Source: Omnitrophica WOR_2 bacterium RIFOXYA2_FULL_38_17
GTDB taxonomy: Bacteria > Omnitrophota > Gorgyraeia > Zapsychrales > Zapsychraceae
Reading direction: 5' to 3'
Length of the DNA: 64,000 bases
Assembly (NCBI GenBank): GCA_001805965.1
Contig: MHHG01000073.1
Span: 18,080 to 82,079, forward strand
The notes below the pieces were generated by a model. It was not told the origin of the DNA. It made no database searches and saw only the letters and a program-made list of their open reading frames with translations. The position numbers were made by a program, and so were the translations under genes. This document shows positions 1,556 to 19,570 of the stretch, piece by piece (within the stretch, counting starts at the first letter, position 1; every line of letters starts with the position of its first letter).

Positions 1556-3529
1556 TTATTCTGGCCCAAGAACATTGTTTCTTAATTCTTCAATATATTC
1601 ATCACTTATTGGCTGGCCTAACTCTTTTGCTTTAATAGCATCATCCAGAGCTTCTTTGTACTGGTTCTTTACTCTATATATATAGGACCGGTTGTAGTAA
1701 GATTTTGCACGTTTTGGCTCTAGATTTATGACCTTGTTTAAATCCTTTAAAGCAAGGTCATACTGTTTTATTGCGATATAAACAGCCCCCCTATTATTGT
1801 AAGCTCGCAAAAAGCCTGGATTAAGCTCCAAAACCTTATTGTAATCCAGAACAGCGAGGTCATATTCGCTTTTAAAGCTATACACATTACCTCTATTGTT
1901 ATAAGCCAATGTGTAATTGTCTTGCAATTCAATAGCCTTTGAATAATCCTGTATCGCAAGGTCATATTTTTTTTCATCCCTGTACACATTGGCTCTATTA
2001 TAATAAGCTCTTGCAAAGCCTGGATTAAGCTCTATCGCCTTATTAAAGTCATTTAAGGCTAAGTCATTTTTATTCCATTGATGATAAACAGTCCCCCTGT
2101 TATCATAGCTCCTTACAAAAGCAGGATTATACTTAATAACCTTATTAAAATACTGAAAGGCAAGATCAAATTTCTTTTGCTTTAAAAGGGCAAATCCCAG
2201 GTTGTTAAGAGCGCGTGATTTAAATGGTGATTTTTTTGCCGCATCAGTCCAAAGCGAGACCTCACTCCTCCAAATTTGATTCCGCTGATAAGTTAATACC
2301 GAATATATGAAAATAATAATACACAGCAATATGATCCCATTTCGCTTAGATCGAAATTTTTTAAATACAATTGTTGCAGCAAGAAAACAAAATCCAAAAG
2401 ATATCAAATAAAGCTTATGTTCAAATATCACATCTGACCTAGGCACAAAATTCGGCAAGAACGTGGCATAAAACCAAAGGATCCCAAAAGAAGCCAAAAC
2501 ATTCTTTTTCCTTAACATTATCCCTGCTAAGAACATTAAAGAAAAAGCCATGAAGCTCAGCATTGTTTCTGGGTCCAATAAAGACTTTGATAATGCAAAA
2601 TCATAGTCAACATTCTGGCTAACTGGCACAAAAAGCAATTTAATAAATGTAACAGAAACCCTGAACTGGGTTAATACATATCTACCAAACGTTATTATGT
2701 CTCCATCATGCGAATTAGATTGTTTTGGTGAGAATAATTGATCCACTACAGTAAAATGAAACAGCTTAGGAATGATCAAAAAGAACGCGAGAAATATTAG
2801 CAGATAAAGCCATCTTTTGCCGCTCTTAAGATATATGAAGAAGTTTTCGTTTTTACTTCTTGAACCAAAAAACAATACTTCAATAAGCACTATTGTTATA
2901 GGTATTGTAATAGTGATCTCTTTGGTAAACATACCCATCAAAGCCGCAAGACCGCTAGCAATAAAATATCCCAGCCTTGCTTTTGTATTTTCACCAATTA
3001 GCCGGGCCTTTAAATAAAGAACAACTGACAACAAATAAAACAGTGTTGCAAGGGATGCAAACCGTTGTGTTATATAGACTACCGCCTGGGTTTGTACAGG
3101 ATGAGAAACAAAAAGCAAAGCTGCAAAAAACGCGATCAAATCTTTATTTTTAAATACTTTATCATCTTTAACCAAAGGGGCAGAAATTAGAAGCAATGCC
3201 ATCCTCCAAACCAACAATGAAGATACAATGTGAATTATAAGATTAGTGAGGTGATATCCAAAAACGTCCAGCTTATAAAAATGATAATTTAATGCAAATG
3301 AATAAAATGCAATAAACCTTGAACGCTCAGGCAATAAGCTCTTGAATATTTGGCCAATATCACCCAAGTTTCTTATCGTAGGATTATTTATAATAAATAT
3401 TTGATCATCAAAGTGAAAGGGGATCTTCAGGGAATTAGAATACACGATCATTCCCAGGATACATATTGCTAAGGCCGGAAGGATCTTTTGGATTATTCTG
3501 ATAGGATTTAAATTCTTAATATTTTTCAA
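1556..3529 (-). CDS. TPR-repeat integral membrane protein, TMTC/PMT_2-like putative GT-C glycosyltransferase (657 aa)
   Basis: N-terminal multi-TM domain with FHFDD and HPVQTQAVVY motifs. The C-terminal third is made of tandem 34-residue TPR units (AYNNRGNVY, AYYNRANVY, SYDNRGTVY). This architecture matches the eukaryotic TMTC / bacterial PMT_2-TPR family. Confidence 0.75.
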   Translation of the reverse strand: MKNIKNLNPIRIIQKILPALAICILGMIVYSNSLKIPFHFDDQIFIINNPTIRNLGDIGQIFKSLLPERSRFIAFYSFALNYHFYKLDVFGYHLTNLIIHIVSSLLVWRMALLLISAPLVKDDKVFKNKDLIAFFAALLFVSHPVQTQAVVYITQRFASLATLFYLLSVVLYLKARLIGENTKARLGYFIASGLAALMGMFTKEITITIPITIVLIEVLFFGSRSKNENFFIYLKSGKRWLYLLIFLAFFLIIPKLFHFTVVDQLFSPKQSNSHDGDIITFGRYVLTQFRVSVTFIKLLFVPVSQNVDYDFALSKSLLDPETMLSFMAFSLMFLAGIMLRKKNVLASFGILWFYATFLPNFVPRSDVIFEHKLYLISFGFCFLAATIVFKKFRSKRNGIILLCIIIFIYSVLTYQRNQIWRSEVSLWTDAAKKSPFKSRALNNLGFALLKQKKFDLAFQYFNKVIKYNPAFVRSYDNRGTVYHQWNKNDLALNDFNKAIELNPGFARAYYNRANVYRDEKKYDLAIQDYSKAIELQDNYTLAYNNRGNVYSFKSEYDLAVLDYNKVLELNPGFLRAYNNRGAVYIAIKQYDLALKDLNKVINLEPKRAKSYYNRSYIYRVKNQYKEALDDAIKAKELGQPISDEYIEELRNNVLGPE

Positions 3530-3612: not shown

Positions 3613-4119
3613 CTATTTCTCTAAATAAGTTTTCATTTCATCCCAGGTCTTTTTACCTATAATTCCATCGGCAACAAGCCCGTGGTCTTTTTGAAATTCC
3701 ATAATTGCACTTTTTGTCTTGCTTCCAAGCTTTCCATCTATTGAGCCACTATAATATCCAGCTTTTAATAAAGCTTCTTGGATAGTGTTTACCTTAACTG
3801 AAACCCTTATTATCCCGTTTTCCTTTGGAATTACTTTAGTTTTAGCGACCGGCTTCTTGACAGTTGGTTCATCTATCTTTATGTCTTCAAAATCATCACT
3901 GGTCTCATCATCCTGCATCGGATCATATCCTTCAACTAACTTAGATATCTCCTTTACTTCATACTTAAGCTTCTCAAGCTCTTGCTCTTTCTTATTCATC
4001 CTATTCTCGATCTGCGCAACCTTGACCTGCAGATTACTAACTGTTGATGCATCCTTTGTGGTCGAACATCCGATGAAGACAATTATGATCAATCCCAAAA
4101 TAAAATTTTTAACGCTCAT
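3613..4119 (-). CDS. Lipoprotein with coiled-coil and C-terminal peptidoglycan-binding (PG_binding_1-like) domain
   Basis: Lipobox FIGC near the N-terminus. Central Lys/Glu-rich coiled coil. C-terminal LLKAGYYSGSIDGKLGSKTKSAIMEFQKDHGLVADGIIGKKTWDEM matches the peptidoglycan-binding domain consensus. Confidence 0.7.
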   Translation of the reverse strand: MSVKNFILGLIIIVFIGCSTTKDASTVSNLQVKVAQIENRMNKKEQELEKLKYEVKEISKLVEGYDPMQDDETSDDFEDIKIDEPTVKKPVAKTKVIPKENGIIRVSVKVNTIQEALLKAGYYSGSIDGKLGSKTKSAIMEFQKDHGLVADGIIGKKTWDEMKTYLEK

Positions 4120-16738: not shown

Positions 16739-17515
16739 TTATTCTTGTGCAAGTTTTTCCATCTCTTCGTCCGAGATATCAAAATTTGCATAGACATTCT
16801 GAACATCTTCTTGTTCTTCAAGTGCTTCCATAAGAGCTAAAAGCTGCTTTGCATCATTACCAATAACCTTAACTGTTGTACTTGGAATCATTGTCATTTC
16901 AGCAGTCATAACAGGTATTTCTTTTGCTTTCAAAGCATCCGTTACAACAGCTAGATCACCAATTTCACATGTAATTTCATGATTTTCGCCTTCTGAATTA
17001 ATGTCTTCAGCGCCTGCATCCAATACAATACCCATTAAATCGTCTTCAGAAACCTTGTCTTTTGCTATGGCAACAAAACCTTTTTTAGAGAATAAAAACG
17101 CTGTGCTTCCAGGGCCAGCAAGATTACCGCTCTTTTTTGAAAGAATATTTCTGATCTCTGCAGTTGTTCTATTTCTGTTATCTGTCAATCCAGTTATCAA
17201 CATAGCAACTCCGCCGGGACCATAAGCATCGAAAGTCACTTCTTCATAAGTAACACCAGGAAGTTCACCAGTACCTTTTTTTATTGCATTCTCGATATTG
17301 CTTGATGGCATGTTGATAGCACGTGCCTTGTCAATAGCAGTCCTAAGCGATGGATTCATCTCCGGATTTCCTCCACCTGCCTTAGCAATAGACGTGATCT
17401 CTCTAATAGCCCTTGTAAAAGCTGCGCCTCTTTTTGCATCAGTTGCTGCCTTCTTATGTTTAATACTTGCCCACTTTGAATGTCCCGACATTTTAACCCC
17501 CTTCAATGGTCCCAT
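16739..17515 (-). CDS. yebC: YebC/PmpR family DNA-binding transcriptional regulator
   Basis: MSGHSKWASIKHKKAATDAKRG N-terminus is diagnostic. 258 aa. The conserved yebC-ruvC-ruvA arrangement is present. Confidence 0.9.
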   Translation of the reverse strand: MGPLKGVKMSGHSKWASIKHKKAATDAKRGAAFTRAIREITSIAKAGGGNPEMNPSLRTAIDKARAINMPSSNIENAIKKGTGELPGVTYEEVTFDAYGPGGVAMLITGLTDNRNRTTAEIRNILSKKSGNLAGPGSTAFLFSKKGFVAIAKDKVSEDDLMGIVLDAGAEDINSEGENHEITCEIGDLAVVTDALKAKEIPVMTAEMTMIPSTTVKVIGNDAKQLLALMEALEEQEDVQNVYANFDISDEEMEKLAQE

Positions 17516-17598
17516 TCAGATAACAAATAAATAAATTGTGCTCTAATGGGATTATTTCAATAATTTTGTCTAGATGTAATTTATTAAATATTATAAAA

Positions 17599-18107
17599 GC
17601 AAACCGATAAGCCGAGTTCTGTAAGTATCACATGAGCATTCATATATTTAGCTTGTCCATGTTTTAACACTTAAGGTAAAAATACAAAATGCTCTTTAGA
17701 AACCTATGGTTATTCAACTCACTTTGAAGATTACTCTTTCAAACTCTTGCAGCCTACCCGAAGATTCAAACGAACCGGATCGATTCGCATTCCATGCAAT
17801 AAGCACTAAGTACCTATTGCACATCAATTCTCTTCCTATTTGGCATTGCTCCATGCAGAGATTGCTCGTTTCACTTAAGCATAAACGATCACAGATCGTT
17901 TATGCCTACATCGTCACTGTAGCTCTGATCATCCTCCAGAAAATAGGGCATAGCATTTAGCGGATAGTTTATATTCTCATTACTAAACGCTATTCGCCAT
18001 ACGCTAGATCACTGAAGAATTCCCGCATTACCGGGATGCATTATCCTTTGGAGCTCGGACTTTCCTCCTCGCTGTATTCAAACAGTGAGGCAACCATATC
18101 GGTTTGC
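17599..18107 (-). ncRNA. rnpB: RNase P RNA (bacterial type A), unusually long (~509 nt)
   Basis: The reverse complement contains GGAGGAAAGUCCGAGCUCC (P4 5' strand), GCAAUGCCAAAUAGG, GGGUAGGCUGCAAGAG (P15 region) and ACAGAACUCGGCUUAUCGG (P4 3' strand). P1 pairing is GCAAACCGAUA/UAUCGGUUUGC. Confidence 0.85.
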
Positions 18108-18511
18108 TTTTCTTTCGTTTCCTTTAATGCTTCAGATGCCAATCTATCAGCATCTTTGTTCTTTTCTCTAGGAACATGACTGATCTTAAAACTCTTAAAA
18201 CCCCGGGCCAATGACTTGACCTGGTCATTAAGAAACTTTAGTTTCGCATTTTTAATTTTATAAGCTCCGATAACTTGCTTATAAACTAATTCACTGTCTG
18301 TGTAGACATTGACGTCATCGGCTCTTAACACAAGCAATTCCTGCAATCCAAAAACAAGTGCCGAATACTCAGCGATATTATTTGTCGCTTCTCCAATTGG
18401 CTTTGATATTTCGCCAACACACTTTCCATCACAATTTATAACAACACCTATCGCAGCCTCCCCAGGATTACCTTTACACGCGCCATCAGTATATATTTCA
18501 AATTTTTTCAT
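18041..18511 (-). CDS. rnhA: Ribonuclease HI
   Basis: YTDGACKGNPGEAAIGVV (catalytic Asp box), ISHVPREKNKDADRLA. The non-conserved ~25-aa C-terminal tail (KQTDMVASLFEYSEEESPSSKG) is encoded by the first ~67 nt of rnpB. Confidence 0.85.
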   Translation of the reverse strand: MKKFEIYTDGACKGNPGEAAIGVVINCDGKCVGEISKPIGEATNNIAEYSALVFGLQELLVLRADDVNVYTDSELVYKQVIGAYKIKNAKLKFLNDQVKSLARGFKSFKISHVPREKNKDADRLASEALKETKEKQTDMVASLFEYSEEESPSSKG

Positions 18512-18513
18512 TA

Positions 18514-19239
18514 TTACAGATATTCTTCAAGATAAAGGATCCTGTTGCACTTTTCACAAAAAACCAATTCATGCTTCTTTTTTAAATTATTTATTTCCTG
18601 CGGCAACACGTTCAAATTGCAACCACCACAAATATTGCCATTTAAAGGAACAATGGCTAATCCATTTTTACGCACTAATATCTTTTCATACATATCCAAA
18701 CAAGCAGGATCGACCTCTGACCCTACCTTAGATTTTTGGGATTTCAAAACTTTGATGCGATCTTTAATGATATTGATCTCATCATCAATTTTTGATTTCT
18801 GCAACAAATATTTTTTTTCTTCTTCTGCAACATTAGCCTTTTCTTTTGCCACTTCTGCATTAACCTTGTCAAACTCTTCATAAGAAATCAATATCTTATC
18901 TTCAATCACGGACATATCGGCTTTAATGCTTTCAATCTCTGAAATCTTTGCTGTATATTCTTTATTCGTTTTTATTGCAGATAACTGTGCATTAGCTTTT
19001 GAAACGCCTTCTTCCTTGACTTTCAGTTCTAATTCCTGCTCTTTTCTGCTTAACTGAATAGTTTTTAATTTTTCCTCTAATACGTGAAGATTTGCCTTCT
19101 TTCCCTCGAACAATTCTTTTATTTCTTCTAGCATGGCTGGTTTTTCTTCTAGCTGGCCATTCAAATCATAAACTTCATAATCAATCTTTTGCAATTCAAC
19201 AAGTTTCGCTATTTGAACATTAACAGAAGTATCTGACAC
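18514..19239 (-). CDS. Coiled-coil protein with C-terminal C4 zinc ribbon (COG1579/DUF164-like)
   Basis: Long heptad-repeat coiled coil followed by CGGCNLNV...FCEKCNRILY (C-x2-C...C-x2-C zinc ribbon). Confidence 0.7.
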   Translation of the reverse strand: MSDTSVNVQIAKLVELQKIDYEVYDLNGQLEEKPAMLEEIKELFEGKKANLHVLEEKLKTIQLSRKEQELELKVKEEGVSKANAQLSAIKTNKEYTAKISEIESIKADMSVIEDKILISYEEFDKVNAEVAKEKANVAEEEKKYLLQKSKIDDEINIIKDRIKVLKSQKSKVGSEVDPACLDMYEKILVRKNGLAIVPLNGNICGGCNLNVLPQEINNLKKKHELVFCEKCNRILYLEEYL

Positions 19240-19353: not shown

Positions 19354-19427
19354 TGGGCCCGCAGGGACTTGAACCCCGGACCAATTGATTATGAGTCAAC
19401 TGCTCTAACCGGCTGAGCTACGGGCCC
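19354..19427 (-). tRNA. tRNA with anticodon CAT (elongator Met or Ile2-lysidine type); CCA not encoded
   Basis: The reverse complement GGGCCCGTAGCTCAGCCGGTTAGAGCAGTTGACTCATAATCAATTGGTCCGGGGTTCAAGTCCCTGCGGGCCCA folds as a cloverleaf: 7-bp acceptor, GCTC/GAGC D-stem, anticodon loop CTCATAA, GTTCAAGTCC T-arm. G1:C72 is paired, so it is not an initiator. Confidence 0.85.
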
Positions 19428-19570
19428 GAAAAATATTAGACAAAATCCTCAAATTTTGGATTTAAGCATATCACAATAGCAATCTGTTTTCAACTGATTT
19501 CCTTTAACTTAAACAAATTCCTATATATAATATAAATAGTAATATTAAAGAGGGATAACCACCTCAACAG

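Follow-up and report, generated by a model that had tools for sequence, protein, structure and literature searches.

How can the last codons of a protein-coding gene and the first nucleotides of a ribozyme be written in the same piece of DNA, and on which of the two products does selection act? This question is raised by a stretch of 64,000 nucleotides (nt) from Omnitrophica WOR_2 bacterium RIFOXYA2_FULL_38_17 (Omnitrophota; contig MHHG01000073.1, positions 18,080 to 82,079), hereafter referred to as the window. On its minus strand rnhA, an open reading frame (ORF) for a protein of the ribonuclease (RNase) HI family, runs into rnpB, the gene for RNase P RNA. This arrangement had been claimed in a sequence-only reading of the window, and both the Rfam match and the ORF coordinates bear it out. 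The 67 nt of overlap given there represent the shared stretch without its stop codon; with the stop it measures 70 nt. The stretch, 18110..18041, is composed of 1 nt of the Glu 133 codon, 22 sense codons (KQTDMVASLFEYSEEESPSSKG), and the stop. There is no spacer: the rnhA frame enters rnpB at its first nucleotide, and the first in-frame stop is encountered 70 nt further on. Indeed, the ORF at 18511..18041 is the only long one that enters the rnpB interval on the same strand. Contained within the overlap are the 5'-strands of helices P1, P2, and P4 and the entire P3 hairpin. The last ~22 codons and the TAA do lie in the P1 to P3 region as had been proposed, with the 5'-strand of P4 now included, and the translation of this segment as EEESPSS is correct codon by codon (GAG GAG GAA AGU CCG AGC UCC). 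The chance of 22 open codons is roughly (61/64)^22 = 0.35, so the length alone is unremarkable. To judge from the sequences, it is the zero-spacer junction and its conservation that exceed chance.

The identity of the RNA is well defined. A match to the Rfam family RF00010 (RNaseP_bact_a) extends from 18110 to 17592 on the minus strand with 130.5 bits (gathering score 100, E=1e-39) and spans model positions 1-367 without truncation. The sequence-only reading had suggested fixing the gene boundaries with this covariance model, which puts the rnpB 5'-end not downstream but upstream of the rnhA stop, 70 nt away as counted to the last base of that codon. Conserved regions CR-I (GAGGAAAGUCC) and CR-V (ACAGAAC.CGGCUUA) are both present and are invariant over 12 loci, and the RNase P RNAs of the relatives score 115-322 bits against the same model. 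On the basis of sequence and structure model, the window rnpB is an ordinary class A RNase P RNA of RF00010. RNase P RNA lengths in this group are unusually large and differ widely, ranging from 346 to 813 nt (L105, 2922-3734; L167, 3396-3954). With respect to the Rfam model, the window RNA carries an insertion of 87 nt that replaces 12 model positions after P5, another of ~43 nt in the P15-P17 region, and a third of ~66 nt before CR-V.

The protein is equally recognizable. Residues 2-129 of the ORF match the Pfam families RVT_3 (5e-24, 85 bits, cut-off 21.6) and RNase_H (1.2e-16, 61.6 bits, cut-off 25.8). Asp 9, Glu 48, Asp 72, and Asp 122 do not vary in either of two alignments, one of 25 and one of 69 sequences, and by homology with solved structures they constitute the DEDD catalytic tetrad. 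The best NCBIfam matches are to the RNase H half of the Rv2228c-type bifunctional enzyme and to the Halobacterium RNase HI; the equivalogs tried (Halobacterium type, Thermoproteota type, and PRK07238 bifunctional) are not reached, the best scores being 100-122 bits versus cut-offs of 140-326. On these matches the enzyme is a member of the archaeal/actinobacterial-type RNase HI family and belongs to none of those equivalogs. Thus the earlier label holds with respect to the RNase HI type, but not in the sense of an orthologue of Escherichia coli rnhA. The nearest structures in the PDB, namely 4e19, 3u3g, 3hst, and 2ehg (E 1e-24 to 1e-14), all align only to residues 1-131, which argues that the domain ends near residue 130 and that the rnpB-encoded part is an appendage. 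In an AlphaFold model calculated with the 69-sequence alignment, the predicted local distance difference test (pLDDT) values reach 95 or more over residues 1-130 and are only 43-59 over residues 131-156, and the tail of 22-26 residues is predicted to be unstructured.

The arrangement is not peculiar to the window. For the analysis of relatives, the 120 nearest 90%-identity protein clusters were used, and DNA was fetched for independent assemblies and scanned with Rfam. A tail of the form KQAKMVAxLF....EESPSSxG, followed directly by the stop and ending at the same position, occurs in 97-99 of the 120 clusters. Comparison of the C-termini, which the sequence-only reading had also proposed, thus reveals no earlier shared stop. 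The stop codon itself is TAA, TAG, or TGA. In L001, L003, L082, L083, and L161-L168, Rfam places the start of rnpB 61-105 nt before the rnhA stop; in all, an overlap of this size was seen in 13 independent Omnitrophota assemblies. In L169 the stop falls within an expanded P3 and the overlap amounts to ~47 nt; there the Rfam 5'-boundary is misplaced by the insertion, and the P1 strand complementary to the 3'-end sits upstream of it. In sister lineages, whose RNase H domains are 45-56% identical, rnhA and rnpB still lie end to end. Six loci (L002, L004, L086, L087, L098, and L131) have the stop 1-13 nt inside P1, and five (L089, L091, L094, L095, and L110) have it 3-7 nt before P1. Spacers of 21-68 nt are found in a minority. 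Every Omnitrophota locus with enough sequence to test has rnpB directly after rnhA. The closest genome match among the matches listed is an Omnitrophota metagenome-assembled genome (MAG) with 94% protein identity.

A wider set, comprising the best 150 50%-identity representatives out of ~15 billion proteins, includes ten further members with EESPSS tails. Some of these enter P1 in a different frame (...KAGQDG...), and some are four codons longer, ending in EESPSSAGQRSG immediately before the stop, which is the exact translation of an L098-type rnpB to its GGGUAA. Two other representatives read P4 in yet another frame. On this comparison, reading into rnpB arose or persisted several times, as expected from a zero-spacer junction. 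Taken over all the loci compared, the overlap is stable throughout a large Omnitrophota clade and thus belongs to the lineage rather than to a single locus. A linkage of rnhA to rnpB throughout the RNase H family was considered and rejected, for outside Omnitrophota-type sequences it occurs in only a few cases, such as an Ignavibacteriae MAG (L008). The P4 motif is absent from 109 related RNase H loci for which 400 nt or more of the region downstream are available, and an Rfam scan of the Solirubrobacterales, Melainabacteria, and Vicinamibacterales loci gave no RNase P match.

Several departures from the common plan were noted among the relatives. The RNase H of L081 (1240-1426) is 89% identical over 132 residues, and its last ~15 residues differ (...KLADSLANQAMDAT before the stop). 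The next 150 nt contain no RNase P motif; this AT-rich stretch, bounded by an 11-nt inverted repeat (TCCTCCTTCGC ... GCGAAGGAGGA), may be an insertion or the product of recombination at the junction. In the metagenome loci L109, L111, and L119, related RNase H domains in ORFs of ~350 codons are fused to a PurN-like formyltransferase C-terminal region, and in L092 (764-1664) the partner is a GNAT-like acetyltransferase region, with rnpB still ~220 nt downstream; the fusion partners were judged by eye.

Where selection acts within the shared stretch can be read from the base pairing of the helices and from the variability of the codon positions. For the former, the 5'- and 3'-segments of 12 sequences were assembled by hand into a mini-alignment, three P1 rows of which are out of register, thereby lowering the score. 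Across P1, P2, and P3, 93.7% of the cells are paired, versus 33-53% with slid partners. Twenty of the 28 pairs have changed on both sides, and none of 500 shuffles reached the observed values. The changes on both sides are distributed over 7 of the 12 pairs in P1, all 7 in P2, and 6 of the 9 in P3, and 97.6% of the P2 cells are paired. Such pairing and covariation argue that the RNA helices inside the ORF are functional, and a mature RNase P RNA with its 5'-end downstream of 18041 is in view of the covariation in P1-P3 very improbable. In the same 12 genes, the entropies at codon positions 1, 2, and 3 are 0.68, 0.41, and 1.37 bit for the RNase H domain and 0.89, 0.60, and 0.65 bit for the 14 tail codons that lie over P1-P3. 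By this measure the domain displays the classic signature of purifying selection on a protein and the tail does not; no protein-type selection was seen on the translated part in the 12 genes, with the V-A-x-L-F segment as a possible exception. Base pairing can be followed down to individual residues. Two tail positions, one preceding L-F and the other preceding EESP, covary as a P3 pair, namely P-G (C-G) in 58 cases, S-G (U·G) in 18, S-E (U-A) in 4, T-V (A-U) in 4, and A-A (G-C) in 1, with 11 mismatched combinations, the counts being phylogenetically non-independent.

Natural variants lead in the same direction. In L170 a CAG to TAG change at the Gln codon reduces the overlap to ~10 nt, and P1 pairing is retained as a U·G wobble. 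In L168 and L169 the stop lies within expanded P3 hairpins, and in L171 an insertion in P3 shifts the frame such that P4 is read as RKVRAP. The tail of protein P0078 (GKVQS) was considered as another frameshifted P4 and rejected, given that in the DNA an expanded P3 contains the stop. On the strength of the helix covariation, the codon-position pattern, the low pLDDT values, and the truncated and frameshifted variants, the target of selection in the overlap is the RNA, whereas the tail is mostly a passenger that is tolerated. It exists because no stop intervenes at the junction. Read in this manner, the overlap falls outside the definition of a dual-function RNA, since its RNA part is selected and its translated part shows no protein-type selection. 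The sequence-only reading had posed an either/or: a single transcript both translated and processed, or a promoter inside rnhA with the protein tail simply tolerated. Tolerance of the tail is supported by the codon pattern, the AlphaFold model, and the truncated variants, and it holds wherever the promoter lies.

The position of the promoter was addressed by scans. No sigma-70-like site matching at least 9 of 12 consensus positions was found on the minus strand between 18586 and 18110, that is, within ~470 nt upstream of rnpB in the window. A relaxed scan of the last 260 nt of rnhA in 36 loci likewise gave no consistently placed promoter before rnpB in the tail clade. The third-position entropy is flat along rnhA at 1.1-1.7 bits, with no dip before rnpB, and thus no embedded conserved nucleotide element is seen in the gene. 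A candidate does stand upstream of the first transfer RNA (tRNA) gene. There, TTGAAA-17-TATGCT recurs with identical hexamers and spacing in 6 of 12 tail-clade loci and nearly so in two more, usually with an extended -10 TG. In L161 a scan detected neither a terminator nor another promoter between the tRNA and the end of rnpB, and in the window the sole terminator-like match from the tRNA to rnpB is a weak 5-base-pair (bp) stem inside rnhA. That hairpin, at 18360-18373 on the minus strand with a T-rich run, lies in the codons for the conserved AEYSAL motif and is probably due to chance.

The absence of a conserved promoter in rnhA, together with the conserved promoter before the tRNA, favors a single transcript driven from upstream. 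In the scheme that we propose, one sigma-70-type promoter upstream of the tRNA would drive a transcript of tRNA(s), Zn-ribbon gene, rnhA, and rnpB. An endonucleolytic cut in the A-rich run of Lys codons just 5' of P1 would then free the RNase P RNA from the 3'-end of the messenger RNA (mRNA). The transcript so cut would lose the last 22 codons of rnhA and its stop, such that each transcript would give either a complete RNase H or a mature ribozyme. Co-transcription and 5'-processing of rnpB are thus what we infer from the comparison of loci, and toward this half of the earlier either/or the evidence leans. The account as a whole, with an overlap, a passenger tail, and a polycistronic transcript that is processed at the 5'-end of rnpB, is in our judgment probable, with considerable room for doubt. 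A processing stem formed by leader and trailer was looked for in the window and rejected, as P1 can be extended there by one pair only. Two of the relatives with a spacer differ in this respect, for their 3'-trailer is complementary to the bases that precede the Rfam-defined P1. P1 would be lengthened by ~19 bp in L084 (~1138-1160 with ~1670-1690) and by ~9 bp in L008 (~3467-3481 with ~3965-3980). This extension looks like a processing stalk, which would imply that transcription starts upstream of the mature 5'-end.

Several considerations weigh against the proposed account, and most of them concern the promoter. In model bacteria the 5'-end of rnpB is the transcription start, as is the case for E. 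coli M1 RNA, and the scans employed the E. coli consensus, from which Omnitrophota promoters may deviate so that atypical ones would escape. The Lys-rich, A/T-rich sequence before P1 could also hide a weak -10 element. Candidate sites close to rnpB do occur in the family: the spacer-containing L133 has TTGACA-17-TAAAAT, an 11/12 match that ends 11 nt before rnpB, and in L094 and L095 a TATAAT ends 3 nt before P1; with L089 included, a TATAGT or TATAAT ends 3-4 nt before the estimated start of P1. From these sites it follows that intragenic or junctional promoters exist in the family, and both modes of transcription may be in use there. An rnpB promoter of its own, located in the 3'-part of rnhA or in the Zn-ribbon gene, would match the textbook arrangement of E. 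coli and Bacillus subtilis and would yield separate, overlapping transcripts in which the tail is still tolerated read-through. The 5'-end of rnpB would in that case be a primary start of transcription or be situated near one. Weak 8/12 matches also recur ~125-145 nt upstream of rnpB in the codons for F/Y-K-Q...Y-K-[IV]. They are accounted for, however, by the A/T-rich codons for the invariant Tyr 84-Lys, and they are absent from the more GC-rich L161, L162, L164, L166, and L167. A conserved weak promoter at ~130 nt was accordingly rejected as a by-product of these codons. With no site of at least 9/12 within 470 nt in the window, none consistently placed in the tail clade, and synonymous-site variability that reveals no conserved nucleotide element in rnhA, a separate rnpB promoter is regarded as possible but rather unlikely.

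The remaining point of this kind concerns the passenger tail itself: its V-A-x-L-F resembles the C-terminal L-A-x-L-F of sister RNases H, so part of the tail may not be pure passenger. According to such an explanation, M-V-A-x-L-F would replace the sister C-terminus and be selected as protein, P2 and P3 would be truly dual-coding, and the motif could be sliding-clamp-binding-like or serve as an anchor. The C-terminus of the sister proteins reads AINL[AGS][GSD]L[FL]. Synonymous changes are plentiful in its codons, a sign that the motif is selected as protein there; these ends were observed in L084-L096, L110, and L138. Many distant family members terminate in Q-x-[ST]-L-F. In the latter the motif follows a low-complexity linker, the family examples being drawn from P0150, P0166, P0192, P0223, P0257, P0265, and P0268. 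Most of the 99 tails contain L-F, and the P2 of the tail clade (GAUGGUUGCC) is far less variable than in the sister lineages. On the other hand, the Val, Ala, and Phe codons are nearly devoid of synonymous variation, as expected from constraint on the RNA rather than on the protein only. L170 retains CUGUUU beyond the stop of its own rnhA, and L-F is missing in L168, L169, L170, P0094, and several divergent EESPSS-tailed representatives. AlphaFold leaves the segment undocked. The C-terminal motif of the family may resemble the bacterial beta sliding-clamp-binding consensus QL[SD]LF. Selection of part of the tail as protein, with or without clamp binding or anchoring, is on balance quite improbable. 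Slightly more doubtful again is a switch in which each transcript is either fully translated or cut at P1, with RNase HI production inversely coupled to ribozyme maturation and with clamp-binding-like dual coding of V-A-x-L-F. If it did operate, ribosomes would unwind P1-P4 in the one fate and full-length RNase HI would be made. In the other, cleavage would give mature RNase P RNA and a non-stop rnhA mRNA with a product tagged by transfer-messenger RNA, and P2 and P3, serving also as the code for a partner-binding motif, would amount to true dual coding inside the ribozyme core. Finally, the overlap could be an artefact produced by a sequencing frameshift that deleted the true stop or by a chimeric assembly. 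A chimera is indeed known here: L172 (contig NODE_45433, 1215-1404; 1.07x coverage) is identical to the window as far as GAGCUCCAA, beyond which it turns into a GC-rich RNase P RNA of unrelated sequence, the two having been joined at the conserved P4, and it is the source of the spurious 165-residue RNase H entry P0001. The window itself is collinear with L001 throughout, the same frame and stop position are found in at least 12 independent assemblies from different samples at 54-94% protein identity, and the same tail is shared by at least 97 protein clusters. Given this conservation across independent assemblies, an error of sequencing or assembly was rejected for the window, and its probability is considered negligible.

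The coordinates of the features are provided in Table 1. In the window the stop of the Zn-ribbon gene lies 2 nt before the rnhA ATG, and beyond rnpB, at a distance of ~80-100 nt, yebC is followed by ruvC and ruvA on the same strand. Across the Omnitrophota loci L161-L170 the genes keep the order tRNA(s), Zn-ribbon gene, rnhA, rnpB, yebC, ruvC, ruvA, scpB, with rpoD further upstream, and all relatives have a tRNA or a pair of tRNAs in the equivalent place. The Zn-ribbon gene precedes rnhA in L161-L169, overlapping it by 4 nt (ATGA) in most. The abutting or overlapping arrangement of these two genes suggests translational coupling and a functional link between their products.

Table 1. Features of the rnhA/rnpB locus, in window coordinates and in the direction of transcription.
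Feature	Coordinates	Strand	Basis
Candidate cluster promoter, TTGAAA-17-TATGCT with TG upstream of the -10 hexamer	19465..19493	(-)	Promoter scan; 38 nt upstream of tRNA
tRNA-Met (anticodon CAU), first gene of the cluster	19354..19427	(-)	Rfam tRNA, 72 bits, and ARAGORN
CT398/CdsZ-like coiled-coil protein with C4 zinc ribbon	18514..19239	(-)	Pfam Zn_ribbon_9 and CT398_CC
rnhA, RNase HI-family ORF, 156 residues, TAA stop	18041..18511	(-)	ORF list and Pfam
Catalytic domain of rnhA, residues 1-130, followed by short linker and tail	18122..18511	(-)	Pfam, PDB relatives, AlphaFold
rnhA/rnpB overlap, 70 nt; 22 tail codons and TAA are nucleotides 1-70 of RNase P RNA	18041..18110	(-)	Rfam and ORF
rnpB, class A RNase P RNA of the bacterial type, 519 nt, longer than the Rfam model by three large insertions	17592..18110	(-)	Rfam RF00010
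P1 5'-strand, AAAGCAAACCGA, coding (E)KQTD; partner 17607..17596	18099..18110	(-)	Covariation
P2 5'-strand, UAUGGUU, in D-M-V codons; partner 17711..17705	18092..18098	(-)	Covariation
P3 hairpin, both strands translated (ASLFEYSEE)	18067..18090	(-)	Covariation
CR-I/P4 5'-strand, GAGGAAAGUCC, universally conserved catalytic-core sequence, read as EES(P)	18057..18067	(-)	Rfam; columns invariant
rnhA stop UAA, just after P4 in ...CUCCAAAGGAUAAUGC	18041..18043	(-)	ORF
P1 3'-strand, UCGGUUUGCUUU, followed by U/A-rich trailer	17596..17607	(-)	Rfam and covariation
YebC/TACO1-family gene, next downstream; likely true start ATG at 17491 (MSGHSKW)	16739..17515	(-)	Pfam/family matches

Few ribozymes are universal, and RNase P RNA is one of them; its gene is usually regarded as free-standing with a 5'-end that is the transcription start. 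Here a whole lineage is without an rnpB upstream region, and ribosomes must read through a strand of the catalytic core. If co-transcription is correct, this would be a bacterial RNase P RNA whose 5'-end is matured from an mRNA headed by a substrate of that same ribozyme; no such case was found in the literature searched. The tail provides a natural example of a protein segment written by RNA base pairing, down to correlated changes of residues, and not by protein function. There is also a bearing on annotation, in that such tails and the P4-joined chimeric contigs are already in the protein databases and affect how conserved C-terminal extensions are interpreted. The practical consequences are modest, and there is no hint of new chemistry. 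In the full-text literature searched, whose coverage leaves out most subscription journals, no description was found of an rnhA/rnpB overlap, of a linkage between the Zn-ribbon gene and RNase P, or of an Omnitrophota RNase P.

How does the locus compare with known systems? Both the RNA and the enzyme are ordinary, and it is the gene architecture that differs. The window rnpB shares family and core with E. coli M1 RNA and the rest of class A RF00010, including CR-I, CR-V, and the covariation-supported P1-P4. The E. coli gene, however, stands alone, and its RNA begins at the transcription start and is processed only at its 3'-end, whereas the first 70 nt of the window rnpB lie in a coding frame, with no 5'-flank and no conserved promoter found. 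As for the enzyme, the archaeal/actinobacterial RNases HI (Halobacterium, 4e19/4nyn; the metagenomic LC11-RNase H1, 3u3g; the Rv2228c N-domain, 3hst; Sulfolobus tokodaii, 2ehg) have the same domain with the DEDD residues and no basic protrusion, but they end at the equivalent of residue 130-131, and none carries an RNA-encoded tail. In Mycobacterium tuberculosis the COG1579-type Zn-ribbon gene Rv2229c adjoins Rv2228c, a likeness to the pairing seen in the window.

With respect to the transcript, the closest parallels are the tRNA-headed mixed operons of E. coli, metY-rimP-nusA-infB and thrU-tyrU-glyT-thrT-tufB, in which processing splits the stable RNA from the mRNA. Common to these and to the window are a promoter before the tRNA, which in the window is a candidate, protein genes after it on the same strand, and no terminators detected. 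Here, in contrast, the proposed operon would end with a second stable RNA, the very ribozyme that would process the tRNA, and this RNA overlaps the last ORF. Small RNAs provide another comparison: CpxQ and SroC are cut from the 3'-ends of mRNAs, MicL arises from a promoter inside a coding sequence, and SgrS/SgrT and RNAIII/hld are dual-function. As in the window, one strand specifies both codons and a structured RNA, and release by an endonuclease is what we propose for rnpB. Unlike those RNAs, the one described here is an essential ribozyme of ~500 nt, and its translated part, which includes a strand of the catalytic core, shows no protein-type selection. Lastly, in Thermus thermophilus rnpA, which encodes the RNase P protein, overlaps rpmH, the gene for L34, in a different frame. 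That overlap too involves a component of RNase P in a compact operon, but it sets protein against protein, whereas in the Omnitrophota locus a protein gene overlaps the ribozyme RNA itself.

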